DNA of 64,000 bases from Candidatus Binatia bacterium (lineage in GTDB: Bacteria > Desulfobacterota > Binatia > HRBIN30): assembly GCA_038245295.1 (NCBI GenBank), contig JBBRSP010000016.1, positions 54,327-118,326 on the forward strand, read 5' to 3'. The notes beneath the pieces are model-generated. The model saw only the letters and a program-made list of their open reading frames with translations, made no database searches and had not been told where the DNA came from. This document shows, one piece after another, positions 1,625 to 25,862 of the stretch. The position numbers and the translations under genes are program-made. Position 1 is the first letter of the stretch, and every line of letters starts with the position of its first letter.

Positions 1625-4399
1625 TCAACGGACTTCCAACGTCGCCAACCGCTGCGACGCGTAGGTCTGTATGTCGGCGCGCCCGGCGCGGCGCGCCAGT
1701 TCGAGGGCGCTGCCATACTCACGCATTGCCTCGGCAGTTTGCCCTTGCTGCACCAACACATCGGCAAGCCCAAGATGAGCTTCCGGCATGCCTGGATTGG
1801 CGCTGACGGCGTGGCGCAGGTGAATCAACGCTTCGATCAGCTCGCCACGTCCGGCCAGCACCGCCCCGAGGTTCAACAATCCACGCGGATCGTCGGGACT
1901 AATGTGCACCGCTTCGCGATAGTGTTCGAGCGCCTCATCCAGACGACCCTTGCCTTCCAAGGCGATCGCCAGATTGTTGTGCGCCGGCGCCAGCCGCGGG
2001 TCGAGTCGAATTGCCTCCTGGTACTCGGCAATCGCCGCATCGAGATCATGCTGGGCGGCAAGCATCTGACCAAGGCCGTTGTGCGCAACCGGCCGGGCAG
2101 GATCGAGCCGAACAGCTTCGGAATAGCTTGCCCGTGCCTCGGCAAGCTTACCCTCGTCGGCCAGCTTCTGGGCCATCGCTTCGTGCCCTGAGGCTCGCAG
2201 CGGCGCGCATGACGGGGCCGTCGTCAAGCGATCGCGGCATGACGATTCGGCCCACTGCGAAGGAGGTAAGGTTGGGCTCCACGGTTCGCCCTGCAGACGT
2301 GCGCCGAAGGCACGCGACAAGCCGGCGGCGTCGTGAAACAGATAGAGCGTCGCGTCGGGCCAGCAGCGGCAGATCTGAGTCTGCACCGACTCCTGTTCTT
2401 CCAGCGAAGGACTCCAGAAGAGCAACCGAGCGATCGGTACGTCGCCATCAAGCGCCGCCAGCAGCGAGCCGCCATTTTCGTAAGCCCGAGTCCGCAGAGG
2501 ATCGGCCGGGAGGAAGTGGCCGATCTCGGCGATATGAAGCCAATCATTAGGCGGGTTGCCGGGTTCGAGGAGCATGATGGACGAGCTCGGTGTTTCCGCC
2601 AAGGCGGGCAACGTCAGTCCCAACCAGGTCCGCGCCACGATGCGCGGGTTGACGATGTCGAAGAGGATGCTGCCGCTGAGCACGACGACCGCTGCCACCG
2701 AAACCGACACCCAATCCGACAACATCCGCCAACCCAGCAAGCGGGCAATACGACTGACACCAACAACCGAAAACAAAGGCAACAGGAGCGGCAACACCAT
2801 GGCCCGATTGAGGGAGGCACGGTCCGTAGCGGAGGCAATAGCGGCGGGGAAAACAGCAACGAGCCAGCAGAGCAGGAGCGCCTGGGTCGTTCGCTGCCGT
2901 CGCCCGTAGATGCAAGCAACCAACCCGACCGCGGCCAGTGCGGCTGAGATGGGCTCGAAGTAGACATCGCCGCACAAACGGACGGGGGTGCGCGGCACGG
3001 CGAACGGTTGCAACACGGCGGCAAGCGGAACGTCGGCGACGCCACGCTCGCCCGAGCGCCACAGCTCGCTCACCTCGCGGTGCGTGTAGTGCTTCTGCCC
3101 CATGACAAGCTGCAAAAGTGGCTCGCCGGCGCCGCGACGCTCCGCATACGTCTCGCTGATTGCCGGCAGGTTGAACAAGATGGGGACCACCGGAGTCACG
3201 GCAGCGATGCCGACGACGACGGCGATCACCCAGTCCAGCAGCGACGGCCGGCGACGCCACAGACGCGGCAAAATCGCCAAACCAGCAACCCCAGCCCACA
3301 ACGTCAGGTGAAGAAACGTCGACGACAGACCCGCCATGGCGCCGAAGGCGACGATATCACTCGAGCGCGCCTCGATCGGCGCGGCATAGATGCGGCATAC
3401 GACGATCAACAGGCCGGCGGCGAAAGCAACCAGCAGCGCGAAGGGCGTCGGACTGAGCGCCATCGACAACATGAACGGCGAGAATAGGAAAGCGGCGACG
3501 GCAATCGGCATGGCTTGTAAGCCAACGAGGCGACGAGTCAGGGCGGCGACTCCAAGTGCCGCCAACACAGCCCAAGCGCCATGTATGGTTTGCACAAAGG
3601 CAAAGCTGGCCTCGAGCCGGCCCGGTCCCACGAACGGCAGGCCGATGAGCAACAAATACGTGTTGGCGAAGCCGACTTCGTAGGCCTGGGCGAGATCGTC
3701 GTGCGGCCGATTGGCGGCATCGAGGAAGAAATCGAAATTCTTCCACATGTCCACCATGTCGGCGGCACGCGCATCGTGGTGTGCGGCGACGACGCGCCAA
3801 ACAAACCACACGCCAATCAGCAGCACCGCGATACCCCACCACACCAGTGTCGTAGCGGGAACCGCGGCGCGTGGCGTCGGGTCGGCGCGGGATTCCGAGA
3901 AACGCAGGATGGCTGCCGGTAAGGCGAGCATGAGGATCATGCTAAGTTGCGCGACATGTGGAAAGGCGGCGGACGTTGCCGTCAGAGGAATCAGCACGAG
4001 GGCAATCGCCAACGCTGCCCACTGGTAGGTACTCGACGGCCGAGGCAGTGCCGGGAGCGTCTCTGTCGCAGCCACGCCTGGCGCCTGCGAGGCAACCGAC
4101 TCGCCGTAGCCGAGGAGCGCCGCGGCCGCGGCCAGAGCCATCAGCCGCCAAGCCACCCACCAACCCGGCGCGTTCGGGAAAATCCGCGTCCAGGTTCCGG
4201 TCGCCGGTGTGATCACCGCGGTCACCGTCGCGGGTGGTGCAAAGAGCGGCACCACATAGAGGCCGAGAAGGAAAACTCCCGCGAACGCGAGCAGTTGCTG
4301 CCGCCGCGCATCGTCGGCCCGGGTACGCTGCATTGGGACAAAACTCGCATGGCATTCCGTGCAAGACAACAAGGCGCTCAGGGCGCGATCGATATTCAT
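1625..4399 (-). CDS. Multi-pass membrane protein (GT-C-like) with C-terminal TPR repeats
   Basis: Many hydrophobic segments, then TPR units (AHNGLGQMLAAQH, AHNNLAIALEGKGRLDEALEHYREA, LNLGAVLAGRGELIEAL). Start may be 4333. GT-C assignment is inferred from topology. Confidence 0.65.
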   Translation of the reverse strand: MNIDRALSALLSCTECHASFVPMQRTRADDARRQQLLAFAGVFLLGLYVVPLFAPPATVTAVITPATGTWTRIFPNAPGWWVAWRLMALAAAAALLGYGESVASQAPGVAATETLPALPRPSSTYQWAALAIALVLIPLTATSAAFPHVAQLSMILMLALPAAILRFSESRADPTPRAAVPATTLVWWGIAVLLIGVWFVWRVVAAHHDARAADMVDMWKNFDFFLDAANRPHDDLAQAYEVGFANTYLLLIGLPFVGPGRLEASFAFVQTIHGAWAVLAALGVAALTRRLVGLQAMPIAVAAFLFSPFMLSMALSPTPFALLVAFAAGLLIVVCRIYAAPIEARSSDIVAFGAMAGLSSTFLHLTLWAGVAGLAILPRLWRRRPSLLDWVIAVVVGIAAVTPVVPILFNLPAISETYAERRGAGEPLLQLVMGQKHYTHREVSELWRSGERGVADVPLAAVLQPFAVPRTPVRLCGDVYFEPISAALAAVGLVACIYGRRQRTTQALLLCWLVAVFPAAIASATDRASLNRAMVLPLLLPLFSVVGVSRIARLLGWRMLSDWVSVSVAAVVVLSGSILFDIVNPRIVARTWLGLTLPALAETPSSSIMLLEPGNPPNDWLHIAEIGHFLPADPLRTRAYENGGSLLAALDGDVPIARLLFWSPSLEEQESVQTQICRCWPDATLYLFHDAAGLSRAFGARLQGEPWSPTLPPSQWAESSCRDRLTTAPSCAPLRASGHEAMAQKLADEGKLAEARASYSEAVRLDPARPVAHNGLGQMLAAQHDLDAAIAEYQEAIRLDPRLAPAHNNLAIALEGKGRLDEALEHYREAVHISPDDPRGLLNLGAVLAGRGELIEALIHLRHAVSANPGMPEAHLGLADVLVQQGQTAEAMREYGSALELARRAGRADIQTYASQRLATLEVR

Positions 4400-4607
4400 T
4401 GCAACCCGCGAGGATGGCAGGTTACAACGCCAGCGACGGCAACGGACGCAGTCCCGCTCGGTTCAATGTCGCGTACGCGGCCAAGGCAGAGGGCCTGAGG
4501 AACAATTCCTTGCAATCCAAAACATCGCCAGTATACAACCAGCCGAATGTGGGCGACCGATGTGTGTACGTTGGAATTCCGCCCGAGGAAAGGTCGCGCA
4601 AGTCAAC

Positions 4608-5417
4608 ATGGTAGCCACGACAGTCAACGATCTTCCCAGCGATGAGAAGGCGGCGGTGCCGTCCCGCCCGCAGGGCGGTGCCGTGGAGCAACCCTACTAC
4701 CGCACGGATGGCCGTTACGAAGGTAGCGCCCCTTTCTTTTACGAAATTGGTCGCTTCCCCTGGGCTCGCCAGGTGGAGGAATCTTGGAAGACCATCCGCA
4801 CGGAATACGAGGCCAACCTGCGGCAAGGGAAGAGCCAGGTGGTCGACGTGTTCAATCCCGTCGGACCGACGATTCCTGGTTGGAAGTCTGTAAACCTGCA
4901 AACCTATCGATGGCGGTACCATCCGGCCTACAATTCGTTTCCCAAGACGGCGGCGCTTCTGAGCACCATTCCCGGGCTGACCTCCGCCTTCATCAACGTT
5001 CTGGAACCCAATTCCAAGATCCCGCCGCACCAGGGTGATTCGAACACCATCGTTCGATTCCATCTTGGGCTTGATGTGCCGAACGGCGACTGCGGTGTGC
5101 AGGTCGGTCCGGAGACCCGCCGGTGCCAGAACGGCACCATGATCGCGTTTTGCGACGCCCATTGGCACTCCTCCTGGAATGCCACGCCGGAGAGCCGTCT
5201 CGTGATGGTTTTCGACGTCATGCGTCCGGAGTATCTGGGGCAGCAACGGCGGATCTCGGCCAATGTCCTCGGGGCCACCGTGGTGCTCTGGCTCGAGACA
5301 AAGCTGCGCTTGCGATCCCCGCTACCGCGGCCCCTGCGATCCCTCCTGCGTTCCGCCATCGGCGTCGCGTTCTTGCTCGTCACACCAATACAAAGGCGAC
5401 TGCATCATGCGGCGTAG
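4608..5417 (+). CDS. Aspartyl/asparaginyl beta-hydroxylase (LpxO/AspH-like) Fe/2OG dioxygenase
   Basis: LEPNSKIPPHQGD, RFHLGLDVP, FCDAHWHSSWN, RLVMVFDV. Start placed at ATG 4608; the ORF-track extension to 4359 looks non-coding. Confidence 0.85.
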   Translation: MVATTVNDLPSDEKAAVPSRPQGGAVEQPYYRTDGRYEGSAPFFYEIGRFPWARQVEESWKTIRTEYEANLRQGKSQVVDVFNPVGPTIPGWKSVNLQTYRWRYHPAYNSFPKTAALLSTIPGLTSAFINVLEPNSKIPPHQGDSNTIVRFHLGLDVPNGDCGVQVGPETRRCQNGTMIAFCDAHWHSSWNATPESRLVMVFDVMRPEYLGQQRRISANVLGATVVLWLETKLRLRSPLPRPLRSLLRSAIGVAFLLVTPIQRRLHHAA

Positions 5418-5432
5418 CGATTGGTACGAGTC

Positions 5433-7253
5433 ATGACGCGTGTTTTGCGGACGGTGATGGTTGCGGCGTCGCGCTACAGCGGGCGTGATGTCGCGTTGTT
5501 TCGTCTCGGCATGGGGCCAAATGGTGCTTTGGGCGCACTTGCCGGCATGGCCGAGGATTACAACGACCGGCATAAGGGCCACGAGCGCATCGATTACGAG
5601 TTCTTTGACGAATACGTTCGCGAAGCCATTACTCCGGAAGTACTGAGATCGTGGCGAGACGCGGCCGCCGCGGATGGCCAGCCGTTTGTCCTGATGATTT
5701 GCGGCGTTCAGACCGCCATGTATCCGCGCGCCCGCGATATCGCGCTCATGGCGCGGCGCGAGGGAATTGAAGTGCTGGCCGGAGGGGTTCACCTGTCGGC
5801 GCACGCGCCCTCCGTGCAGTTTTTCCTCTCCTGCGGCGTACATGTCGCGATTGGCGAAGTCGAACCCATCTGGGACCGGATCATCGAGGACTGCATCGAA
5901 GGCAACCTGCAACCCTCCTATCGCATCACCACGGAGCAGGGAGTGCGCGTAAAAACCGTAACTTCCTACATCGCCGCGCCAGACGTGTCGCGAGTACCCT
6001 TCCCGCACATCCCGAAGGCGGCACGACAGCGCTACGTGCACCCGTCGCAGTTGTTCGTCGATAGCTCGCGTGGCTGTCCATTCCTGTGCACCTTCTGCGT
6101 CGTCAAGAACGTCTTCGGGCGCACGGTGCGTGGTCGCGACCCCGAACGGCTGGTTGCCTGGATCGTCGACCGCGTGCGCAACGACAAGGCCGCCAGTTTC
6201 TGGTTCACCGACGACAACTTCGTTCGCAATGCCGGCCACCGCGAGTTGCTCGAAAGACTCGCGGCAGCGCGAGCGGCCGGCAATAAGTTTTCACTGTCCT
6301 TGACCCTCGACGTCGAATCCACCTGCTACGCGCGCGACGATTCACCGCGTGGCGAGCAAACACGTGAATTCCTGCGACTCTGCCAAGCCGCAGGCGTGGC
6401 TCATGTCTTCATGGGTTTGGAGAGCACCAACGACGCGGCGTTGCAGGAAATGCGCAAGGGTGTGAACCGTGACCGTACCGATGTGCACGCCACCGGAAGC
6501 GGCGTCGACGGGGCGGCAGCGGCACGCGCGCGGTTAGTCGAGCGCTACAAGACGGCCGTGAGCGCGTGGCACGAGATCGGCGCGTCGGTCGAGTGCGGGT
6601 ATCTCATCGGGTTCGAAGCGGATGGGCCCGGCGTTGGCCTGCAAGCGGCTCGCGATATCGTTGCGATCGGGGTCGACATTGCGACGTTCTACCTGGTGTC
6701 GCCGCTCCCTGGGTCGGAAGACTACGCCACGGCGTTCGAGAAGGGCACCCTCCTCGAGCCGGACTTCAACGAGTACTTTCGCGACACGGCGATGATTGCT
6801 CATCCGACGATGTCAGCCAGCGACATGGAGGCCGAATTGCGAGCGGCGATTCGGGCCACATGGACGTGGCGCAACGTGGTTCGTCGCTTGGCGCGACGTG
6901 TCCTCGGGCTCAGTGGCAAACGTGTCGTTACACCGTGGCGCTACATCAAACGTCAAGTTGGCACCAAGCTGATCATCAGCACCGGCATGTTGACGTATGC
7001 GCAAGGCGGTTTGTTGCGCCGTCATGATGCGGGGCGCAATCTGCGCCTGGCGATCTCCGATGAAGAGGCTCGGCTTGTCTACCTTGGGGAGGCGAGCCCC
7101 AGCCCGAGCGCCAGGCAGACCGTCGAGCCCAGCATGCTTTCTTTGCCAGTATACCTCGACACGCCGGTGAGCGCCCCGGCCGGCCGTGACACCGACGTGC
7201 CAAAGCCGGCAGCTGTGCCACGCGAGGTGTGGACAACCGGGACCGTCGCATGA
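5433..7253 (+). CDS. Cobalamin-binding radical SAM protein
   Basis: RGCPFLCTFC (CxxxCxxC), N-terminal B12-binding-like AGGVH and IGEVE, FTDDNF, GLES, LPGS. Stop overlaps next start (ATGA). Confidence 0.85.
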   Translation: MTRVLRTVMVAASRYSGRDVALFRLGMGPNGALGALAGMAEDYNDRHKGHERIDYEFFDEYVREAITPEVLRSWRDAAAADGQPFVLMICGVQTAMYPRARDIALMARREGIEVLAGGVHLSAHAPSVQFFLSCGVHVAIGEVEPIWDRIIEDCIEGNLQPSYRITTEQGVRVKTVTSYIAAPDVSRVPFPHIPKAARQRYVHPSQLFVDSSRGCPFLCTFCVVKNVFGRTVRGRDPERLVAWIVDRVRNDKAASFWFTDDNFVRNAGHRELLERLAAARAAGNKFSLSLTLDVESTCYARDDSPRGEQTREFLRLCQAAGVAHVFMGLESTNDAALQEMRKGVNRDRTDVHATGSGVDGAAAARARLVERYKTAVSAWHEIGASVECGYLIGFEADGPGVGLQAARDIVAIGVDIATFYLVSPLPGSEDYATAFEKGTLLEPDFNEYFRDTAMIAHPTMSASDMEAELRAAIRATWTWRNVVRRLARRVLGLSGKRVVTPWRYIKRQVGTKLIISTGMLTYAQGGLLRRHDAGRNLRLAISDEEARLVYLGEASPSPSARQTVEPSMLSLPVYLDTPVSAPAGRDTDVPKPAAVPREVWTTGTVA

Positions 7254-8050
7254 CCAGCGGCGCGTTATTGGGCTCGCCCCTCTACGTTTACCTCACCTAT
7301 TGCCTGGAGTTCGGACTGCGCTACTTCGCACTGGCCGGTGGGGCGTACTGGCTGCTGCACGTGGCCTTTCGAGGCCGCTTTCTCACCTATCGCATCCAGG
7401 AGAAGTTCCCCGAGTCGACGGAGATTCGGCATGAGATTCGCTGGTCGATGTCGAACATGTGTTGCACCGGATTCTCAACCGTTCTCACCTACGAGCTGAC
7501 CCACAACGGGTACAGTAATCTGTACTACGGCGTGCTCGATCATGGTGTCCTCTGGCTCGCTCTGTCTGCCGTCTTGTGCGTGGTTGGTTACGATACCTGG
7601 CTCTACTGGGAGCATCGGCTCCTCCACACGGATTGGCTGTTCCAGCATGCGCATCGGGTGCATCACCGCGTCGGCAACCCGACACCGTTGGCAACCTTCG
7701 CCCATCATCCAATCGAAACACTGATGGGTAACGTCTACTTTGTCCTATTCGCCGTGCTGGTCCCCGTACACCCCTTGGCTCTGGCTGCGGCGGGTCTTTA
7801 CATGTTTCTCTTTGGCATCGTCGGTCACCTGGGCTACGAGTTCTACCCGCGATGGTTCTCACGAACCGTTCTCTTCAAGATCCTGAATACGGCCACCTAC
7901 CACAACATCCACCACCGGCAGGTCCGCTGTAACTACGGTGCCTATTTCATCTTCTGGGACCACTGGATGGGCACAGCCAACCCGTCGTACGAAGAGACAT
8001 TCGACGTCGTAACGGCGCGCCGTTCCGACGCTACGCTGACGGCTCTCTGA
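7250..8050 (+). CDS. Sterol desaturase / fatty acid hydroxylase superfamily protein
   Basis: His boxes YWEHRLLH, HRVHH, FAHHPIE, HLGYE, YHNIHH, NYGAYFIFWD; membrane segments. Confidence 0.9.
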   Translation: MTSGALLGSPLYVYLTYCLEFGLRYFALAGGAYWLLHVAFRGRFLTYRIQEKFPESTEIRHEIRWSMSNMCCTGFSTVLTYELTHNGYSNLYYGVLDHGVLWLALSAVLCVVGYDTWLYWEHRLLHTDWLFQHAHRVHHRVGNPTPLATFAHHPIETLMGNVYFVLFAVLVPVHPLALAAAGLYMFLFGIVGHLGYEFYPRWFSRTVLFKILNTATYHNIHHRQVRCNYGAYFIFWDHWMGTANPSYEETFDVVTARRSDATLTAL

Positions 8051-8122: not shown

Positions 8123-9043
8123 ATGGGGCCACTGGAGCGACTTACGTTGAATGCCATCGACTTGTCCGTCGTAACACCCGTTTACAACAACGCCGCGACG
8201 CTCGACGAGCTGCTCGACCGCATCATCAAGGTGGTTGAGCCGATTACCGCTGATTTCGAAATCATCCTGGTCGACGACGGCTCGCGCGATGAGAGCTTGT
8301 CGATTCTACGACGACGCGCTGCCGCCGACCCACGGATTCGACCACTGTCGCTGGTACGCAACTTCGGCAGCCAGGCCGCCGCCTGCGCCGGGTTGGACCA
8401 TGTGCGCGGACGGCGCATGGTTTCGATCGACGCCGACCTGGAGAATTGTCCGGAGGACATCCCGGCGTTACTCGAGCCGCTCGACCGCGGCTACGATCTA
8501 GTGTGTGGCTATCGTGAAACACGCGACGCCCCCTGGCTTCGACGCAAGCTCCCTTCCTTGATCATGAACGCCTACATCCGATACCAGCTTGGCACCCGCG
8601 TACGAGACCTGGGCTGCGGGATGCGGGCCATGCACTCGTGGGTCATCCGTGATCTCGAGTCCGAAGGTGAAAACCGCCGACTGCTGACACCGATCATTCT
8701 ACGCCGCGTTCGTAAGGTCGCGGAAGTTCCGATTCGCCCCGGCATCCAACGTACCTCGAGCGCCCACTCCTTCCTCACTCTGCTCGGCATGGCCATGGAT
8801 TACTACTTGCTCTCGGCGCGGCGCCCATTCCTGATCAGCGGCCTCACTTCTGTTCTCGTCGTGGGGGTGGGAAGCACGCTGCTGCTCTTTGGTCCGAGAT
8901 TGGCGGGGCTCGTATTGTTCGCGTCGGGGTGGCTTGGCGCCCTGATGTCTCTTCTCGGCGAATACCTGCAGCGCAGCTACCAACTGGCTCAACGCGTGCC
9001 CTTCTACAAACTCAGGCAGCCGGACGAACCAGGCAATCCCTGA
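8123..9043 (+). CDS. GT2 glycosyltransferase (ArnC/GtrB-like polyprenyl-phosphate glycosyltransferase)
   Basis: LSVVTPVYN, VDDGSRD, RNFGSQAA, IDADL, DLGCGMRA, two C-terminal TM helices ending GEY. Confidence 0.88.
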   Translation: MGPLERLTLNAIDLSVVTPVYNNAATLDELLDRIIKVVEPITADFEIILVDDGSRDESLSILRRRAAADPRIRPLSLVRNFGSQAAACAGLDHVRGRRMVSIDADLENCPEDIPALLEPLDRGYDLVCGYRETRDAPWLRRKLPSLIMNAYIRYQLGTRVRDLGCGMRAMHSWVIRDLESEGENRRLLTPIILRRVRKVAEVPIRPGIQRTSSAHSFLTLLGMAMDYYLLSARRPFLISGLTSVLVVGVGSTLLLFGPRLAGLVLFASGWLGALMSLLGEYLQRSYQLAQRVPFYKLRQPDEPGNP

Positions 9044-11094: not shown

Positions 11095-13131
11095 ATGAAT
11101 CGTCCGATCTCGATCTTCTTGGGGGACATGCTTCACCCCAGCAATCAGAACAAAACATTTCCCTATGCGGGCGGATGCGTCGGCGCCTACGTGGCCGAGG
11201 CGCTTGGTGATCGTGTCGTAGTTGAAGTGTTCCGTTCCCCGGAAGACATGGATGCCGCCTTCCAGCGTTGCCAACCCGACATCATCGGCTTCAGCAACTA
11301 CCTATGGACCCTCGAGCTTACCTACGAAGTCATCCGTCGCCTCAAGGCAAAGATGCCAAACGTCCCCGTCATCATGGGCGGCCCGAATTACCCAACCGAC
11401 GCGGCGGATCAGCGGGCGTTTCTGACGCGCTACTCTCTGGTCGATTTCTACGTGGTGAAGGAGGGTGAGGCGCCGTTCCTGGCGCTCATCGAGCAGCTTC
11501 TGGAGCTCAGGCTCGACGGCGCCGTATTCAAGGAGCAGCGCCGTACAATTCCCGCCGTCCACTATCTTATCAACGAGGATTTCGTCGCTCCGCCACCGGC
11601 GCCACGGCAGCGCGACCTCGACGCCTTTCCTTCGGCGTATTTGAGTGGTCTGCTCGACAAGTTTTTCACGCGCCACGACCTCACGCCATTGATCCAAACC
11701 AAACGTGGTTGTCCGTTTCAGTGCACGTTCTGCGTCGAGGGCGAGGACTACTACACCAAGGTCGGTTCGGTGACCACGACGCGTTTTCGCGCCGAGTTGG
11801 AATACATCGCCAGCCGAATGGCTAACGGCTCGCCGTTGCTGCAGATCGCCGATTCGAATTTCGGCATGTTCGAACACGACCTCGAAGTATGCGACGTCAT
11901 CGCCGAGGTGCGTGACACGTACGGCTGGCCACAAACCATCGAGGTATCAACCGGGAAAAATCGCAAGGAACGCGTCCTCGAGGCGGTACGCCGCACCAAA
12001 GGCGCCATGCGGTTTGGTCCGGCGCTGCAAACCACCGATCGCCAAACCCTGCAGAATATCAAACGCTCCAACATTTCCGAAACCGTCCTGATCGAGATGG
12101 CGAGCGCGGCAAAAGATTCCGACCAGCGATCCTATACGGAACTGATCCTCAATTTGCCGGGCGATACGATCGCCTCGCACCTGACTTCGATTCGCGCCGC
12201 GATGGAAGCCGGGATGCAACGGATCAAAATGTATCCCCTGATGCTGCTCCCCGGCACGGAGATGGCCTCCGAGGAGTCGCGCCGCGAATTCGGCATTGAG
12301 ACACGCTTCCGTGTCTTGCCGACGTGTTACGGCAACTACACGTTCCTTGGCGAGACGTTTCCAAGCGTCGAGATCGCCGAGTTGGTCGTCGCCACCAATT
12401 CCATGAACTTCGCCGACTATCTGCACTGCAAGCGCTTCGAGCTATCGGTGGAGATCTTCTACAACGACATCTACCTCGAAGAGATCCACGGCCTGGCACG
12501 CGCGCTCAATCTACCGATGTTCACCTTCGTCGAGCGCTGCCATGCCCAGTTCGACAGCTTCCCGGCGGAGCTCAAAGAGGTCTACAGCGCCCTCGAGCAC
12601 GGCGTCTGCGACAATCTCTTCGACTCGCGCGACGCTTGCCTCGAGCATTTCCGCGATCCGGACCATCTGCTTCGCTATGCGCGCGAGGAATACAAGAACA
12701 GCCTCGGCGCTTTGAAGGCGATCGCCCTGGTGGAGCATATCGAGCCGCTGTTGGTGATCGCCCGCCGGGCCTTCTGGGAGTGTATGGAAGCAGCAGGACT
12801 GGGGCAGCCGTCCCTCGCCGAGTACCTCGATGAGCTCATCGAATACAGCCGCCTGCGACGCCGCCAGATCCTCGACATCGAAGTCGAGCCGGAAGGAACG
12901 TTCCAGTTTGCCTTCGACCAGATCGGTGAACGCGCGTTCCGCGTCGATCCGCGCGACTTCCGCCTGCGGCAGCCGCAACGCATGCGCTTCTGGCACGACG
13001 AGGCGCAAGCCCGCGACTTGCGGCGACTGCGCAGCGACGTATCCAATCCGATCCTACGGGCCCGCTCATTCATCTACCCGGCCACCGATCCGGGCGTGAA
13101 CCCGTATCTGCGTCACGCACGTTTCTGCTGA
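11095..13131 (+). CDS. Cobalamin-binding radical SAM protein (678 aa)
   Basis: PDIIGFSNYLW, GGPN, EGE in B12-binding region; KRGCPFQCTFC; ADSNFG; LLPGTEM. Confidence 0.88.
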   Translation: MNRPISIFLGDMLHPSNQNKTFPYAGGCVGAYVAEALGDRVVVEVFRSPEDMDAAFQRCQPDIIGFSNYLWTLELTYEVIRRLKAKMPNVPVIMGGPNYPTDAADQRAFLTRYSLVDFYVVKEGEAPFLALIEQLLELRLDGAVFKEQRRTIPAVHYLINEDFVAPPPAPRQRDLDAFPSAYLSGLLDKFFTRHDLTPLIQTKRGCPFQCTFCVEGEDYYTKVGSVTTTRFRAELEYIASRMANGSPLLQIADSNFGMFEHDLEVCDVIAEVRDTYGWPQTIEVSTGKNRKERVLEAVRRTKGAMRFGPALQTTDRQTLQNIKRSNISETVLIEMASAAKDSDQRSYTELILNLPGDTIASHLTSIRAAMEAGMQRIKMYPLMLLPGTEMASEESRREFGIETRFRVLPTCYGNYTFLGETFPSVEIAELVVATNSMNFADYLHCKRFELSVEIFYNDIYLEEIHGLARALNLPMFTFVERCHAQFDSFPAELKEVYSALEHGVCDNLFDSRDACLEHFRDPDHLLRYAREEYKNSLGALKAIALVEHIEPLLVIARRAFWECMEAAGLGQPSLAEYLDELIEYSRLRRRQILDIEVEPEGTFQFAFDQIGERAFRVDPRDFRLRQPQRMRFWHDEAQARDLRRLRSDVSNPILRARSFIYPATDPGVNPYLRHARFC

Positions 13132-19257: not shown

Positions 19258-20283
19258 TTACTCCCAGCTCACGACGACCTTGCCGATCGAAGCGCGGCCC
19301 TCGAGGAAGCTGTGTGCGGCAGCGATCTGGCTGACGGGATAGCGGCCACCGACGTGCGGCTTGATCTCACCATCGACGGCCAGCTTGACGCAGGCTTGCA
19401 GCACACGCTGCAACACGAGAGGCCGATCGTCGGAGATATGCAGCATGTTGACGCCAAGGATCGACTTCGAGTGGATCAGGAGCGGTATCGGATGTTGGAA
19501 CCCAAAGGATAACGCGAAACGAACGTCCTTGAGGATCTGCAGACTTCCCGCCTCACGCGACGCCGCACCAAAACAGACGATACGGCCGCCCGAGGCAAGG
19601 AGCTTGATGCCGTCACGCACCGCCGCTCCGCCGAGTGAATCGAAAACCACGTCTAGCCCGTCGCTGCCACGCAGCTTCTTGACGGCGTCGAAGAAGCTGG
19701 TGCGCCGGTAGTTGATTGGATGGTCGACACCGATCGACCGGAGATAGTCGAGCTTGTCATCGGAGCCGGCCGTACCGTAAACAACGGCGCCGCGCCGTTT
19801 GGCGAGCTGAACCAGCGCCGTCCCGACACCACCGGCGGCGGCCTGCACGAGGACGTGATCCCCAGGGTAGAGGCGCACCATCTCTTCGGCGCAGTAGTAT
19901 GCCGTGCCGTACTGCGTCGCCAAGGCCGTCGCCACACCAGCGTCCATCGAGTCGGGAATCGGCACGGCGGCGCGCGCATCGGTCAGCGCGTGCGTCGCGT
20001 ACCCACCAAAACGCGTCAGGGCTGTGACCCGCGTACCCAGCGCCGGCTCACTCACCCCGGCCCCAAGCTTCTCGACGCGCCCGACAACTTCGTAGCCGAT
20101 CACCGAGGGCAGTGGAGGCGCGTCCTGGTAGGTACCGTGCCGCGCCGAGACATCGGCATAGTTCAATCCGAAGGCCTCCACCGCGATGCGCACCTGGCCC
20201 GCCGCCGGCTCCGGAGTCGGCAGATCACGAATCGAGAACGCCTCTTCACTGGAACCATGCTTGATAAGGACAACGGCTTTCAT
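19258..20283 (-). CDS. Medium-chain dehydrogenase/reductase (zinc-independent, VAT-1/enoyl-reductase-like)
   Basis: MKAVVL start, GLNYAD, GYEVVG, AAAGGVGTA, GLDVVFDSLGG, GKVVV. Confidence 0.9.
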   Translation of the reverse strand: MKAVVLIKHGSSEEAFSIRDLPTPEPAAGQVRIAVEAFGLNYADVSARHGTYQDAPPLPSVIGYEVVGRVEKLGAGVSEPALGTRVTALTRFGGYATHALTDARAAVPIPDSMDAGVATALATQYGTAYYCAEEMVRLYPGDHVLVQAAAGGVGTALVQLAKRRGAVVYGTAGSDDKLDYLRSIGVDHPINYRRTSFFDAVKKLRGSDGLDVVFDSLGGAAVRDGIKLLASGGRIVCFGAASREAGSLQILKDVRFALSFGFQHPIPLLIHSKSILGVNMLHISDDRPLVLQRVLQACVKLAVDGEIKPHVGGRYPVSQIAAAHSFLEGRASIGKVVVSWE

Positions 20284-20322
20284 GCGCGCCCCATACAAGG
20301 GTGGGCGGGCAAGCCGCAAGGT

Positions 20323-20443
20323 CATTTGGCCATCTCGCCATTTGGCCAACTAGAGCCGTTCACCGTCCTGCCATTTGATCCTGGCATTTGCGGCAAGCCT
20401 TGGCCAAACGACAAATGGCCAAATGGCAAGAGGGCAAGATGGC
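20323..20443. repeat. Inverted array of degenerate 8-bp repeats (CATTTGGC / GCCAAATG)
   Basis: Left arm CATTTGGC CATCTCGC CATTTGGC, right arm AAATGGCC AAATGGCA AGAGGGCA AGATGGC; related element at 60204-60350. Confidence 0.65.
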
Positions 20444-20449
20444 TACGCC

Positions 20450-20480
20450 TTGACAGGTCGGCGGGAACAGCCCTTATATC
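20450..20480 (+). promoter_or_regulatory. Possible sigma70-type promoter for the ADO-like operon
   Basis: Perfect TTGACA at 20450-20455 and AT-rich TTATAT near 20474; -10 match imperfect. Confidence 0.35.
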
Positions 20481-20502
20481 CATGGTCCGAGAAGGAGTGC
20501 CA

Positions 20503-21243
20503 ATGACTGCTGCCGGAGAGACCTCGACTATACAAACAACCGAAGAACGGGAGTCCGCCGGAAAGCTGATGGGACTCGTCGTTTTTGGCGAGATGGTCGC
20601 CGCACGCACTTATAAACTGATGGCTGATCTGCGACCCGAGTTCGCAACGATTCTGCGCAAGTTCGCCTCGATGGAAGGCCAGCATGCCACCTGGTTCCGC
20701 GACACCAGCCAGCGCAACGGCATCGAGCTCGACAAGGATTTTGCCGATAAAGAGCTCGGTTACCTGATCGATCAAGTCGACAACTACTCGGCCCAGAAAG
20801 ACTTCGACGCCTTGATGATTGTGCAAGGCTTCATCGTCGAGAGTCTGGCCATCGCCACCTATGAGCCTTTCCTGGAGATCGCCCCGAAGTACGAGGGTGC
20901 CAGTGCCGCGTTCGCGCAGGCGTTGGCCGACGAGCGTTATCACGTCGACTGGGTGACTCGTTACCTGCGGCTGCGCTTCTTCGACAACCACGACGAGTTC
21001 ATGTCGCTGACCGACCGCGTCAATGTCCAAGGCATCGATTGCGTCGGCGGCACACTCATGAGCATCGCCAACGGCTTGAAAAGCGTTGGCCTTTCGGCGG
21101 CCGATTGCACGGGCGCGATGATGGACGAATACACGAGCCTCCTCGAGAATGTCGGCGTCGAGTCGCGACGCGCCACCAAGGCCGTAGTCAGCTTGTTCGT
21201 ACCGTTGGCGCAAAAGTATCGCCGCCGCCCAGAAGCGCACTGA
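20503..21243 (+). CDS. Aldehyde-deformylating oxygenase (long-chain fatty aldehyde decarbonylase) homolog, ferritin-like di-iron protein
   Basis: RBS GAAGGAG at 20491. 246 aa with E30, E58xxH61, E113, E144xxH147; blocks GEMVAARTY, MEGQH, DKDFA, IVQGFIVESLAIATY, DERYH, YTSLLENVG align with cyanobacterial ADO as recalled (GEQEA, MEQRH, IQSLIIECFAIAAY, DEYLH, YGEALENIG). Confidence 0.82.
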   Translation: MTAAGETSTIQTTEERESAGKLMGLVVFGEMVAARTYKLMADLRPEFATILRKFASMEGQHATWFRDTSQRNGIELDKDFADKELGYLIDQVDNYSAQKDFDALMIVQGFIVESLAIATYEPFLEIAPKYEGASAAFAQALADERYHVDWVTRYLRLRFFDNHDEFMSLTDRVNVQGIDCVGGTLMSIANGLKSVGLSAADCTGAMMDEYTSLLENVGVESRRATKAVVSLFVPLAQKYRRRPEAH

Positions 21244-21272: not shown

Positions 21273-21899
21273 ATGGAGGACTCACTCGAAGCACTCTTCT
21301 GGGCGATTCTGCGGCGCTTCGAGAGTGCCGCGATCCGCCAGTATGACCGTGTTGCGCCAGAGCTGGCCGAGGCCGCCAAGCGTGCCTATGTCGCCCGGCT
21401 CCAAGACTGTGGCGCCACCGATGCGGTGCTCGATGCCAGCGAGTTGGCCGCACCGGTGCGAGACCTTCTAGCCACCGCCGCCAATAATGATCTGGTGACG
21501 ACGTTGATCGTCCAGGGCTTATTTCTCGAGCATCTTGGTCGAGCCATCTATCGCGTCGCCGGCGAGCAAGATTCCATGAGCCCGGAAAGCCGCGCCCTCG
21601 CCGCCGATGGCATCGTCGCCAGTGATGCCGTGGTGGCGCGCTGCACGGAATTGCTGGCCCGCACGATTCCCAACGGAGAAGATTTGTTCCACCGCTTTGT
21701 CGACGCCTCGCGCGACCTGGTCGAGCGGCTCGACACACTGGGCGAGGCGGTCGACCATGTGTTCGGCGAACGCTTCCACCTGCACTTCCGCGACATCATG
21801 GGCGACTTCACCGCCGACCTGCTGCCGGCCTGCGTCGAGCTCGGCATGACACGCCGAAAAGTCGTGGCGCATTTGACCGGCGCACTCATGGGGATCTGA
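21273..21899 (+). CDS. Degenerate ADO-like ferritin-fold protein lacking both ExxH motifs
   Basis: FESAAIRQY matches GEMVAARTY and DLVTTLIVQGLFLEHLGRAIY matches DFDALMIVQGFIVESLAIATY of the upstream gene; 208 aa; no ExxH at equivalent positions. Confidence 0.65.
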   Translation: MEDSLEALFWAILRRFESAAIRQYDRVAPELAEAAKRAYVARLQDCGATDAVLDASELAAPVRDLLATAANNDLVTTLIVQGLFLEHLGRAIYRVAGEQDSMSPESRALAADGIVASDAVVARCTELLARTIPNGEDLFHRFVDASRDLVERLDTLGEAVDHVFGERFHLHFRDIMGDFTADLLPACVELGMTRRKVVAHLTGALMGI

Positions 21900-21907
21900 C
21901 CGACTCG

Positions 21908-23077
21908 ATGCGCGTCGCCAGCGGAGAAGCGGTTTGCATCACCGGCGCCAGCGGCTACGTCGGCCGTCTCGTCGCCGCGGCGTTGCTGGCATACGAGGAC
22001 GTCGATCTCGTCATCCCGGTGCGCGAGAAGTACAGCGCCGCCGATATTGCCACTGCGGTTGCCAAGGAGTGCGAGACCCTCGGCACACCGGCTTCGCCCG
22101 AGATGCTGCGTCGCCTGCACGTGGTGGCGCTACCCCCGACAAGCGAAATGGCATCACTCGGGCCGCTGCTGCGCCAGCATCGGGTTCGCCAGATCATCCA
22201 CTGTGCCGGCTCCCTCAGTTACTTCAGCGCCAGCAAGCTGAAGGAAGGCAACCTCGATCTGACGCGCGCCCTGCTCGATGTCGCCAAGGCCAACGGCGTC
22301 CATCGATTCCTCTACATGTCGACCGCCTTCAGCGCCGGCTTCGTTGCCGGACAGGTGCGGGAAGCCCTGCACCACGATCCGCCCGAGGACCCAACCGAAT
22401 ATACGCGTTCGAAGCGCCAGACCGAACACATGGTCGCCGACAGCGGGCTCGATTACGTCATCCTGCGGCCGTCGATCGTCATCGGCCACAGCCGCAGCGG
22501 CCTCTACTCGGGGCGACCGTATGGCCTCTACCAACTGTGGAACGCCGGCGAACGGTTCATGAGTGACCGCTACACCCCCGTCTTGCACGCCATCGCCCCG
22601 CGCGTTCCGCTGCAGGTCGTGCATCAAGACGCCGTGCAGGCGGCGGTATTGGCCGCCTACCGCGAGATTCCAAGCGGCGGTGTGTTGCACATTGTGTCGC
22701 GCGAAGCCTCGCTACCGACGGTGCGCGAGATGTGGGATTTGTGGTTCGGCGCCTGGGCGCGTCCACAAGAGATGCACTACTACGACACGCTCGAAGAAGT
22801 GCCCATGCAGGAGCTCGACCGCCAACAGCGCTGGCTCGTCGAGTTCGCCGCCGCCAATATCGAAATCTCGACCCATCCCTGGCATTTTGCGGCGCATCGC
22901 CTGGACGCCCTGCGCCGGGACGGCCTCGCCTTTACCGATGCCAGCATCGAAACCGTGGCCAACTCGCAGCGCGTCTTCATGCAGAACTCGCCGCGCATTC
23001 GCCGCTTCCTCGAAGCGCATGCCGATAAGATTCCGGCAGCGTCGGCCACCGCGCCGCATTCCGCCGGCTCGGAGTGA
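21908..23077 (+). CDS. Extended SDR, thioester reductase / fatty acyl reductase-like
   Basis: ITGASGYVG, IIHCAG, YMSTAF, YTRSK (YxxxK), LRPSIVIGHSRSG. Confidence 0.8.
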   Translation: MRVASGEAVCITGASGYVGRLVAAALLAYEDVDLVIPVREKYSAADIATAVAKECETLGTPASPEMLRRLHVVALPPTSEMASLGPLLRQHRVRQIIHCAGSLSYFSASKLKEGNLDLTRALLDVAKANGVHRFLYMSTAFSAGFVAGQVREALHHDPPEDPTEYTRSKRQTEHMVADSGLDYVILRPSIVIGHSRSGLYSGRPYGLYQLWNAGERFMSDRYTPVLHAIAPRVPLQVVHQDAVQAAVLAAYREIPSGGVLHIVSREASLPTVREMWDLWFGAWARPQEMHYYDTLEEVPMQELDRQQRWLVEFAAANIEISTHPWHFAAHRLDALRRDGLAFTDASIETVANSQRVFMQNSPRIRRFLEAHADKIPAASATAPHSAGSE

Positions 23078-23196: not shown

Positions 23197-24252
23197 ATGG
23201 ATCGGTCCAACTACACCCATCTCGACGAAGCGTTCGACATGCTGACGGACTGCGGTCCCGACATGAAGAATGGCTTTACAAATCACGGCCCGATGGCAGC
23301 CGAAGCCCTTTGTGCGCTTGGCCGCGCCGATGCCGTGCTCGATTGGGTGGAGAATTACCGTCGCGGCGGCCTGCCCTGGGCGCCGTCGCGCCAAACCATC
23401 GATCAGAACAACTGGCGGGAGGCGTTGGCCCGGGAAGACCGCATCAGCGATTGGCGCGCCTTCTTTCACGCAGAGATGCAGGGAGCGACGTGGCAGGAGG
23501 TCCTGAACCGTTGGGCCGGCCAACTCGCACCGGGCATCTGCGCCGCCGCAGCCCATGGCGTCATCCGCGTCGGCCACGCGGCGCGTGCCCTCGGCGCCGA
23601 GGAAACAGCGCTGCGGCGCGCCGAGCTCGCCGACGCACTGGCCTCGTGGGCCTACGCGTATCAAGAGTTGCCGACGCAAACACCGATTTCGCCGGGCACG
23701 CTCACCCCGCATCAGGCCTTCGGCCGGGTACCGCTGATGCCACCGGAACAGCGGCGCTTCAGTGGCACGATTGTGTCCTCTCTCTATGCTTTGAATGACT
23801 TCCCCGCGTTTGCACCGGTGATTGGATTGATCGATGTCCGCGGCGAACCCCAGCGCCTGGTCGGCCAGATGACCGAGGTCTTTGCCCGGGTCTATCTAGA
23901 AAACGCCAAGGACGTTCTGACGTCGATCGTTTTCATCCATGGCGTCACCGGCATCGACGCACTCGGCAACATGCTTCCGTACCTCGACGACGCAACGGCG
24001 CGCACGGCGCTAGGGTATGCGTGGCAAGCGAGTTGCGGACTTTACGCGGCGTTCGGCACACACCCCCTGGGCGGAAGCGAAATCGAAGCGCCCCGCGAAA
24101 ACGACGAAACGCTCGTCGAGATGGCTGTCGGCCACGGCGACGAACACGTCATCAAGTTTACCGAAGCGTGTTTGCACCAGCATTCGCTCAACCCTTCACC
24201 CGCCTACCTTGCCGCCGCTCGCCACGTCATCGACGCACTACCGCGCTCATAA
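23197..24252 (+). CDS. Questin oxidase family protein (DUF4243)
   Basis: NHGPMAAEALCALG, AAAHGVIRVGHA, FIHGVTG, HGDEHVIKFTEAC; RBS AAGGAG upstream. Confidence 0.75.
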   Translation: MDRSNYTHLDEAFDMLTDCGPDMKNGFTNHGPMAAEALCALGRADAVLDWVENYRRGGLPWAPSRQTIDQNNWREALAREDRISDWRAFFHAEMQGATWQEVLNRWAGQLAPGICAAAAHGVIRVGHAARALGAEETALRRAELADALASWAYAYQELPTQTPISPGTLTPHQAFGRVPLMPPEQRRFSGTIVSSLYALNDFPAFAPVIGLIDVRGEPQRLVGQMTEVFARVYLENAKDVLTSIVFIHGVTGIDALGNMLPYLDDATARTALGYAWQASCGLYAAFGTHPLGGSEIEAPRENDETLVEMAVGHGDEHVIKFTEACLHQHSLNPSPAYLAAARHVIDALPRS

Positions 24253-24321
24253 GACGGTTCGAGAACCGCCGCTTGCGTTAGGCTAAACCCGTATGCGAGA
24301 AACCGCGACGGTGGGTGCAGA

Positions 24322-25068
24322 GTGAATAAAGAAGCTCAGCGTCGAGTCGAACAGGATCGTCTGTTCGCCGAAGAGCGTCGAACGATCCAGGATTTCAACT
24401 TCGGTGCCGATACCGCCGCCGTCTTCGACGATATGCTCGGCCGCTCGGTGCCGTTTTACGACGAAATCCAGCGCATGATTGCCGAGATGGTCGACGATCT
24501 CGGTGTCGACGGCACCAACGTCTACGACCTCGGCTGCTCGACGTGCGCCACGTTCCGTCAGCTGGCCGGCGTCAGCAAGGACGTCAACTTCATCGGCATC
24601 GACGACTCACGCGCCATGCTGGATCGCGCCGAAAAGGAACTGGCGGCCGCCGGCTTCAACCGACGCTACGAGTTGCGCGAACAGGACCTCCACAAAGGTC
24701 TGCAGATCGAGAACGCCTCGGTCGTCATCTTGAATCTCACCTTGCAGTTTGTGCGTCCGTTGTATCGCGAGCGTTTGCTGAAGACGATTTTCGACGGCCT
24801 GCAGCATCAAGGCGCTTTGATCATGGTCGAAAAGGTGCTGGCGAAGGGAACATTGGAGAGTCGCCTGTTCATCAAGTACTACCACGCGATGAAACGGCGC
24901 AACGGCTACTCGCTCACCGAGATCAACCAGAAGCGCGAGGCGCTCGAGAATGTCTTGATTCCCTACCGCCTCGAGGAAAACGAGCTGCTGCTGCGGGAGA
25001 CCGGCTTTACGGGCGTCGAGATCTTCTTCAAGTGGTACAACTTCTGCGGCCTGGTGGCGCTGAAATGA
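24322..25068 (+). CDS. cmoA: Carboxy-S-adenosyl-L-methionine synthase
   Basis: VFDDMLGRSVPFY, VYDLGCS, IENASVVILNLTLQF, KRRNGYSLTEINQKREALENVL, WYNF. Confidence 0.88.
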   Translation: MNKEAQRRVEQDRLFAEERRTIQDFNFGADTAAVFDDMLGRSVPFYDEIQRMIAEMVDDLGVDGTNVYDLGCSTCATFRQLAGVSKDVNFIGIDDSRAMLDRAEKELAAAGFNRRYELREQDLHKGLQIENASVVILNLTLQFVRPLYRERLLKTIFDGLQHQGALIMVEKVLAKGTLESRLFIKYYHAMKRRNGYSLTEINQKREALENVLIPYRLEENELLLRETGFTGVEIFFKWYNFCGLVALK

Positions 25069-25862
25069 CCGCCGTACCGCCACTCAGCGAGGCGGCGTCG
25101 AGTCCGGGCGCGAAGTTATTCTCGGCACTCGGCCGTTTTGTCTTCCGCTACCGCGATTACCTGGCGCCGGTCATCGCGATTCTCATACTGCTGCTGACCG
25201 AGCCGTGGCCATTTCTTGGCAGCCCCTATGCCGATCGCTGGCTCGGATTCTTCGGCTTCGTGGTGGCGTTGCTCGGGCAGGCGATCCGCATGACGGTCAT
25301 CGGCTACGCCTACATCGTGCGTGGCGGCGTCAACAAGGAGATTGCGGCGCCGCGCCTGGTCGCGGAAGGCTTCTACGCCCACAGCCGCAATCCGATGTAT
25401 CTCGGAAACTTCCTGCTCATCATCGGTTTGGCGCTGGTCTATAACTCGCCGGCCGTCTACCTGGTCGGCCTGCCTCTGTGTATCATCGGCCTGGTTTCGA
25501 TCGTGCGGGCCGAAGAGGAATTTCTGCTCGGCCGCTTCGGTGCCGAGTACGCCGAGTATTGCAGACGGGTACCGCGTTTCATTCCCAACATGCGGGGCTT
25601 GTATGCGACCTTGTCGGGCATGCAGTTCGACTGGCGTCGCGTGCTGCGCAAGGAGTACGGTACGACGCTGGCATGGACCAGCGCGATGACGATCTTCCTC
25701 GCCGTCGAGCAAGTCCATTGGGACGGCTTGTCGGAAAGCGACGACGAGCTGACCGCTCTGGGCGTCTCCTGGGCCGTCGTCTTCGCCGCCTACCTGATCG
25801 TGCGCTGGCTCAAAAAAAGTCGCCGCCTGGAAAGTGCGCCGGCCGCATCCGCCGTCCGGTAG
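25065..25862 (+). CDS. Isoprenylcysteine carboxyl methyltransferase (ICMT/PEMT) family membrane protein
   Basis: GFYAHSRNPMYLG, EEEFLLGRFGAEYAEYCRRVPRF; ATGA overlap with cmoA stop. Confidence 0.85.
   Translation: MTAVPPLSEAASSPGAKLFSALGRFVFRYRDYLAPVIAILILLLTEPWPFLGSPYADRWLGFFGFVVALLGQAIRMTVIGYAYIVRGGVNKEIAAPRLVAEGFYAHSRNPMYLGNFLLIIGLALVYNSPAVYLVGLPLCIIGLVSIVRAEEEFLLGRFGAEYAEYCRRVPRFIPNMRGLYATLSGMQFDWRRVLRKEYGTTLAWTSAMTIFLAVEQVHWDGLSESDDELTALGVSWAVVFAAYLIVRWLKKSRRLESAPAASAVR

Follow-up and report, generated by a model that had tools for sequence, protein, structure and literature searches.

A stretch of DNA from a Candidatus Binatia bacterium encodes, in three consecutive genes that we call A, B and C, a genuine distant relative of the cyanobacterial aldehyde-deformylating oxygenase (cADO) that forms its own clade, together with two downstream genes that appear to be nearly obligatory partners of A, more than optional context. 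The window referred to below is the whole of this stretch, 64,000 nucleotides in length (assembly GCA_038245295.1, contig JBBRSP010000016.1, positions 54,327 to 118,326 of the forward strand). Sequence comparisons and structural models of the trio, which totals 2.6 kb, suggest a second route to hydrocarbons. We lean towards a joint reading in which A, B and C are a mobile three-gene module, with C probably converting an acyl-carrier thioester to an aldehyde and A-B then converting the aldehyde to a C(n-1) hydrocarbon and formate.

Gene A occupies positions 20503-21243 of the forward strand, in a frame that is open throughout, and encodes a 246-aa diiron-carboxylate protein with the ADO fold, the predicted catalytic subunit. 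It lies at the 3' end of a 507-aa open reading frame (19720-21243) whose 5' part an earlier, sequence-only reading had called spurious. We agree that this 5' half is an artefact, since it runs antisense to a divergent zinc/quinone-oxidoreductase gene outside the cassette (19258-20283, reverse strand; Pfam ADH_N and ADH_zinc_N), for which the related loci have no homolog, and since most of the best 120 homologs are 240-260 aa long. The ribosome-binding site that the same reading had assigned to the gene is also there, a Shine-Dalgarno-like AGAAGGAG read from the sequence at 20490-20497 (forward strand), 5 nt before the ATG. Further upstream, the intergenic region holds an imperfect inverted repeat (20323-20443, with 26-nt arms, 85%), which is probably REP-like because short matches to it are scattered over 17 or more of the genome's contigs. 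A perfect TTGACA stands at 20450-20455, notwithstanding which the promoter scan returned 0 sites.

The Pfam model PF11266 (Ald_deCOase) scored 66.6 bits on the A protein against a gathering threshold of 28, and the equivalog model TIGR04059 scored 67.7 bits, under its cut-off of 222.65. When PDB sequences were searched, cADO took each of the top 20 places (E 1e-17 to 4e-9); the first match from a different family came in at 0.053. Residues E30, E58, H61, E113, E144 and H147 of A align unambiguously to S. elongatus ADO (4quw), where their partners are, in order, E32, E60, H63, E115, E144 and H147. These are the cADO iron ligands as given by Jia et al. in one part of their paper (PMC4286721), which confirms both the ligand pattern proposed earlier and its cADO numbering. 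In the family alignment, the six ligands are kept in 119 or 120 of 120 A sequences, as are Y37, Q108 and Y120, the counterparts of cADO Y39, Q110 and Y122.

The predicted structure of A points the same way. Its AlphaFold model (pLDDT 89.7) matched cADO in Foldseek with a target TM of 0.88-0.94 and an rmsd of 1.4-2.4 Å. When the model was compared exhaustively against 48,161 chains, cADO reached Z 31.8 and 28.8, the best superposition (VIA; Z 31.8) having an rmsd of 1.5 Å over 218 residues, whereas other ferritin-like chains stayed at or below 20.0 (R2lox 20.0, BMM hydroxylases at most 17.4, acyl-ACP desaturase 1oq4 13.7). The Pfam families of R2lox, acyl-ACP desaturase, MiaE and AurF gave no match to A, with MiaE and AurF outside the fold-comparison rows listed, and the PaaA_PaaC model found nothing at E 0.01 in either A or B. 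The sequence-only reading had taken A for a divergent branch of ADO outside the cyanobacteria, similar to ADO over its full length. The profile scores, the PDB sequence matches, the fold and the separate clade described below all bear this out, and none of PaaA, R2lox, the acyl-ACP desaturases or the BMM hydroxylases matches A equally well.

Identity between A and 15 cyanobacterial ADOs (every second of 30 cyanobacterial loci) is 20-23%. Relatives of A were far closer to it: a word-indexed search returned 324 among 1135 candidates, the best 119 of which are 58-86% identical to A, and an exhaustive search of 50%-identity representatives returned 38. In a quick tree of 71 rows, 24 A, 21 B and 15 cADO proteins each fell on one side of a supported branch (SH-aLRT 97, 100 and 95, respectively), and the A clade, made up of these 24 rows and three divergent ones, is separate from the 15 cADOs. 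Because the tree was midpoint-rooted and its long-branch joins were flagged, no order of events is drawn from it. Two proteins within the A clade, P0133 and P0134, are degenerate copies that have lost most iron ligands, and possibly represent further duplications to non-catalytic forms. The same genome also carries a second tandem ferritin-like pair with a weak PF11266 match (L106:473-2458, on G000:C75), in which both members have ExxH-type motifs and which branches far from A, B and cADO, as well as a 377-aa ferritin-like diiron protein of a different family, again with a weak PF11266 match, that adjoins an SCO-like gene (L107:1123-2256, on G000:C8).

Twelve channel positions of cADO were mutated by Bao et al., as laid out in a portion of their article (PMC5007808), and in A these positions read A19, L22, L25, V26, G29, T68, L85, A116, T119, I188, L197 and C202. 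The residues lining the channel are thus small or hydrophobic, the cavity being read off the alignment to those positions. In cADO, G31 and A118 adjoin the aldehyde carbon; their equivalents here, G29 and A116, are conserved in 119 and 120 of 120 sequences, respectively. Other parts of the channel are altered: the Y21-Y125 seal of cADO is absent (A19/F123 in A), the A121 position is T, the V28 position is mostly A in the family, and a conserved W64 stands at the position of cADO G66. With these changes, A may act on something other than a plain fatty aldehyde. cADO takes C4-C18 aldehydes, according to a section of PMC5007808, and the part of Jia et al. that deals with the seal proposes that it may exclude C24 aldehydes (PMC4286721), so its loss hints at longer or bulkier chains. 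The surface on which cADO meets the acyl-ACP reductase (AAR) is altered as well. Gao et al. placed the AAR-binding acids of cADO at E196/E200/D201 and the gate at W178 (PMC7089970), and A has A200/G204/A205 and G182 at these places; W178, E200 and D201 are present in 15 of 15 cADOs and in 0 of 24 A proteins. To judge by the alignment, the AAR dock is gone from A.

Gene B (21273-21899, forward strand) encodes a 208-aa paralog with the ADO fold and without either ExxH motif, the predicted non-catalytic partner of A. Neither Pfam nor NCBIfam matches it, a B profile found no significant match among PDB sequences, and pairwise BLASTP of A against B returned nothing, so that the homology of the two becomes apparent through profile and fold comparison. 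The B profile aligns to the A-family profile with an hhalign probability of 92.6, the Atlas positions B near decarbonylase clusters, and the best Foldseek matches of its model (pLDDT 95.6) are all cADO (TMq 0.71-0.78). The terminal glutamates E17 and E86 and the lysine K36 are kept in 30 of 30 B sequences; K36 lies near the place expected for the first ExxH, and the second ExxH reads S...V. From these replacements we infer that B binds no diiron centre. An F or L at the cADO G31 position in 29 of the 30 sequences indicates that B's own tunnel is probably blocked, which makes a role as a conduit doubtful.

A and B are predicted to form a complex. The modelled pair scored ipSAE 0.69, against 0.00 for the best of three controls; 116 of 157 solved complexes attain the mark for this score, as do 2 of 215 mismatched pairs, rates that are only rough for the alignments used here, and close cousins of true partners also pass, so that paralog likeness could contribute to the A-B score. 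The runs agreed in at least 97% of contacts, with a partner pLDDT of at least 90. In the model, residues 189-240 of A meet residues 154-208 of B, that is, helices 7-8 of each protein. Conserved complementary charges face each other there, and we would pair A D201/D208 with B R194/R195 and B D174/D178 with A K226/R240. Since the AAR dock is lost from A and B is modelled on those very helices, B would sit where AAR would.

Gene C (21908-23077, forward strand) encodes a 389-aa stand-alone extended SDR that resembles the terminal thioester-reductase (R) domains of NRPS and PKS systems. Pfam finds NAD_binding_4 and Epimerase in it, and a PDB search places MxaA first (E 5e-16), then two other NRPS/PKS entries, with epimerases lower. 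At 63.9 bits, TIGR01746 is under its cut-off of 213.35 and is nonetheless the best-scoring NCBIfam model; the SDR model PRK07201 scores weakly. The GxxGxxG motif and residues T139, Y165 and K169 are intact, with G13/G16/G19, Y165 and K169 present in 40 of 40 C sequences and T139 in 39 of 40. We propose that C reduces carrier-bound thioesters, an activity with which the gene contexts of loci L001, L002 and L062 (see below) are consistent. SDRs of the R-domain type reduce by two or four electrons, and which product C releases is not readable from its sequence; MxaA, its best match, is presumably a four-electron, alcohol-releasing domain.

The canonical partner, AAR, can be ruled out for A. Its model TIGR04058 found no match in this genome, which is 96.6% complete, with S. 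elongatus as a positive control, and none of the 17 other carriers exceeded the cut-off, two genomes having sub-threshold matches. One AAR-like match, of 80.6 bits and under the cut-off, lies in genome G074 on a contig other than that of the trio. Given that an aldehyde user needs an aldehyde source, that AAR is absent and that C is found in 51 of 53 loci, C would take the place of AAR.

The association of the three genes was assessed by running A, B and C profiles over 97 related loci, 17 from genomes and 80 from metagenomes, a few of which are the same contig twice. Where 400 bp or more are available beyond A (76 loci), B directly follows A in 75 (73 counted by script, plus L002 and L033, where B abuts the end of A). 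Where the downstream sequence extends to 1500 bp or more (53 loci), C lies downstream of A in 44 and upstream in seven; it was not found in L040 or in L056, whose sequence ends 1.5 kb upstream of A. L040 (308-991) is the sole informative locus in which neither B nor C follows A; a Ser/Thr kinase gene follows instead, and 300 bp of DNA are available upstream. Across 40 distinct complete trios, which are not independent loci, pairwise identities correlate (A-B 0.37, A-C 0.42, B-C 0.72; 0 of 999 permutations), as expected under joint inheritance. One A gene, L016:8046-8729 in G076, contains a single in-frame TAG beside B and C genes that look intact, and may be a pseudogene or an assembly error. 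A larger conserved cluster was rejected, as A, B and C are the only genes that recur outside groups of related genomes. Among the loci compared, no gene for a reductase, ferredoxin or regulatory subunit is conserved alongside the trio, which rules out a dedicated ferredoxin in the cassette; elsewhere in this genome there are four Fer2 matches, and PP-binding matches number seven in the genome.

The distribution of the cassette is wide and patchy. It spans about seven phyla with no photosynthetic hosts, and the carriers named in 17 GTDB genomes are Melainabacteria, Myxococcota, Planctomycetota, Binatia, Alphaproteobacteria, Chloroflexota and Ca. Velthaea; all 17 are metagenome-assembled genomes, so that some taxon labels may be wrong. 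Two Melainabacteria genomes (L003, L011) carry the A-B-C cassette rather than cADO, and L010, labelled Chloroflexota, shares neighbours with these two and may be mislabelled. RecA of the host shares 82-83% identity with that of two Binatia genomes and one Deltaproteobacteria genome, all metagenome-assembled, and no more than 70% with that of two Myxococcota, which makes the host a probable member of the Binatia. Within the host lineage, gene A was found in 0 of 25 same-family genomes, the order yielding three weak matches in a different family, none better than E 8.5e-7, and in none of 300 other genomes of the phylum at E 1e-15. These absences argue against vertical inheritance in the host lineage and mark gene A as accessory and patchy.

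At most loci the trio stands alone, with unrelated neighbours and no fatty-acid genes nearby. Some loci are more informative. L001 and L002 have the trio at the end of an operon, FabL-FabG-FabZ-FabF-ACP-like-PPTase-FabD-C-A-B, whose Fab genes are assigned by likeness. The ACP-like member (L001:4449-5345, L002:4352-5263) is a conserved protein of about 300 aa (298 aa) that has no Pfam or NCBIfam match; we read it as ACP-like from a GIES motif in its N-terminal part, while the C-terminal part is long and helical. L062 arranges its genes as C, a FAAL-ACP fusion, A, B and a membrane desaturase, and L056 is the same from the FAAL-ACP gene onward. FAS-II and FAAL-ACP thus appear to be two unrelated contexts that would supply carrier-bound acyl chains. 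The cassette has membrane desaturase genes beside it in L010, L013, L016, L056 and L062, and MMPL, LolA-like or DUF1302 genes in L006, L012, L013, L064, L083 and L090.

In the window itself, the 3' part of a FAAL-like gene (3-1616, forward strand) is the best FAAL-type match in the genome (E 3e-69, the next at 7e-24). It closes an MBL-P450-ACP-crotonase-like-FAAL operon whose beginning lies upstream of the window (G000:C16:49160-55940, or L139:11162-17943; from the ORF layout, with ACP and P450 by Pfam) and ends at window position 1616, 19 kb upstream of gene A. The operon's ACP (G000:C16:52000-52290), encoded together with a crotonase-like protein of 601 aa, is a possible acyl-ACP donor for C in this genome. 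Downstream of the operon lie genes for an Asp/Arg-type hydroxylase (4359-5417), a radical SAM protein (5421-7253), a fatty-acid hydroxylase (7229-8050), a GT2 (8123-9043) and a B12 radical SAM protein (11095-13131), and the window further contains DegT aminotransferase, radical SAM, UbiA-like and JmjC genes. Together with the operon, these genes look like a large lipid or glycolipid tailoring island. The earlier placement of A inside a lipid-tailoring cluster is therefore apt locally, given the FAAL operon 19 kb upstream, and does not extend to the family, as a search at E 1e-5 with the eight genes next to the trio in the window found no homolog at the other loci. After C and on the same strand, questin-oxidase-like, SAM methyltransferase and PEMT-like genes (23197-25862) follow that are not conserved with the trio.

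Under the reading we prefer, C would convert an acyl thioester on its carrier to the aldehyde at the expense of NAD(P)H, with the acyl chain coming as acyl-ACP from the host FAS, from a dedicated FAS-II or from a FAAL-loaded ACP, or possibly as acyl-CoA. A, with its predicted diiron centre, O2 and electrons from a host ferredoxin, would then cleave the C1-C2 bond to yield a C(n-1) alkane or alkene and formate; cADO receives its electrons from ferredoxin, as indicated in a passage of PMC9743570. In the complex model, B docks on helices 7-8 of A, the surface that serves AAR docking and aldehyde entry in cADO, and could act as a lid, a stabiliser or an adaptor for C. The oxygenase would accordingly be a heterodimer of a catalytic and a non-catalytic subunit. 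Against this reading stand the low identity of A to cADOs, its score far under the TIGR04059 cut-off, its altered channel, the chance that C releases an alcohol, and the scarcity of fatty-acid genes around most of the loci. Moreover, since ADO activity has been claimed for unrelated ferritin-like proteins, weak deformylation in vitro would by itself be no proof of a physiological role.

The main rival, which we judge unlikely while giving it real weight, is that the trio makes an oxygenated or chain-shortened lipid instead of a hydrocarbon. C might reduce the thioester to the alcohol, with A/B hydroxylating or desaturating the chain before or after release; alternatively, A might cleave off C1 and the resulting radical be oxygenated to a C(n-1) alcohol or aldehyde, which C would re-reduce to give odd-chain fatty alcohols. 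Some R domains release alcohols, and the best relatives of C are R domains; its weak PRK07201 score, the remodelled channel of A and the membrane desaturases beside the cassette in the five loci named above would also fit. Oxygenated and chain-shortened side-products are known from cADO itself. The fold of A and the surroundings of its metal site are nevertheless cADO-like and far from those of a desaturase (Z 31.8 versus 13.7 for 1oq4), and no alcohol-using enzyme downstream is conserved with the trio.

We regard it as improbable that the trio is catabolic, with A/B as a small two-subunit hydrocarbon hydroxylase and C oxidising the resulting alcohol. A design of one active and one inactive paralog is typical of sMMO and of PaaA/PaaC-type oxygenases, the host probably belongs to the Binatia, a group rich in alkane-degradation genes, and the MMPL, LolA-like and DUF1302 neighbours could serve import as well as export. 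Such a role sits poorly with the biosynthetic character of the FAS-II and FAAL-ACP operons, with the lack of a co-conserved reductase, ferredoxin or regulatory subunit, and with a fold far nearer to cADO than to BMM hydroxylases. Least probable of all is housekeeping detoxification, in which A would deformylate and C reduce free aldehydes with no dedicated product: the trio's isolation in unrelated surroundings at most loci and the C4-C18 aldehyde range of cADO (PMC5007808, in part) would suit it, but it leaves the FAS-II and FAAL-ACP embedding, the R-domain affinity of C and the strict retention of B unexplained.

Beyond the hydrocarbon reading itself, we entertain, with somewhat more doubt than belief, a wider proposal. 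A heterodimeric deformylating oxygenase with an NRPS-type stand-alone reductase might be a second, independently assembled ADO-type hydrocarbon pathway outside photosynthetic cyanobacteria, encoded by a cassette that is mobile across at least seven phyla, including Melainabacteria, and that plugs into FAS-II or FAAL-ACP. B would cap the substrate port, and the products, possibly longer or unsaturated hydrocarbons, might be exported by MMPL/LolA-type systems. Sections of two earlier papers describe ADO as unique to cyanobacteria (Coates et al., PMC3903477) and as having no orthologs in other prokaryotes (Klahn et al., PMC4094844). Some A-family members already carry the database label "long-chain fatty aldehyde decarbonylase". 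A lake metagenome study names, in an excerpt, a Flavobacteriaceae decarbonylase gene by annotation (PMC10176705), and a further metagenome screen uses the KEGG term only, as far as part of its text goes (PMC13170169). Our literature search, whose coverage left out most subscription journals, found no description of the A-B-C trio.

Should the proposal hold, a conserved ADO-type cassette in heterotrophs of soil, peat, lake and marine habitats would mean that the short hydrocarbon cycle has a source so far overlooked. The true chemistry of the family also matters for estimates of alkane genes, because metagenome screens count such matches by annotation alone, as in the part of PMC10176705 concerned. 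With cADO described as the rate-limiting enzyme of its pathway (PMC7089970), a two-subunit ADO type whose channel is open at one end and whose reductase is not AAR would offer a new scaffold for biofuel enzymology. Gene B, for its part, would be a compact case of a pseudo-enzyme subunit born of duplication.

Several known systems share features with the trio. ADO activity in vitro has been claimed, according to their PDB titles, for the non-cyanobacterial ferritin-like proteins 6d9f, 5uxg and 8fhc, and they resemble A in this respect; their folds are more distant (Z 13.7-20.0) and they fall outside the A clade. Proteins of this kind are reportedly the subject of Mak et al. 2020, who, according to PMC9314684, saw no activity in two R2lox proteins. 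Comparison of C with the R domains (MxaA 4u7w, 4dqv, AusA 4f6c; TIGR01746) reveals a common extended-SDR fold, GxxGxxG motif and T-Y-K triad, and, as a further likeness, ACP/FAAL or FAS genes accompany C in L001, L002 and L062. It differs from them in standing alone, in its score of 63.9 against the cut-off of 213.35 and in a C-terminal half that is not alignable to MxaA. PaaA/PaaC, sMMO and ToMO encode a catalytic diiron subunit alongside a ligand-poor homolog, as A-B does. Their folds, however, reach Z 14-17 against A, compared with 31.8 for cADO, and the trio has no PaaB/D/E, regulatory or reductase subunits and derives B from an ADO-type fold.

The closest parallel is the cADO-AAR system (PF11266, TIGR04059; 4quw, 4rc5, 5ux2, 6jzu; AAR TIGR04058). 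The two have in common the eight-helix fold, the six ligands, the equivalents of Y39/Q110/Y122, small or hydrophobic residues at the aligned channel positions, an adjacent reductase gene and the lack of a dedicated ferredoxin in the locus. They differ in that A shares only 20-23% identity with cADOs, forms a separate clade and has lost the docking acids, the W178 gate and the Y21-Y125 seal, and in that the trio lacks AAR and has instead a near-obligate paralog B without ExxH, an SDR reductase of the R-domain family and non-photosynthetic hosts. On present evidence, the trio would work like AAR-ADO and yet stand outside the cADO equivalog, because A scores under the TIGR04059 cut-off, has C in place of an AAR partner and branches in a clade of its own.
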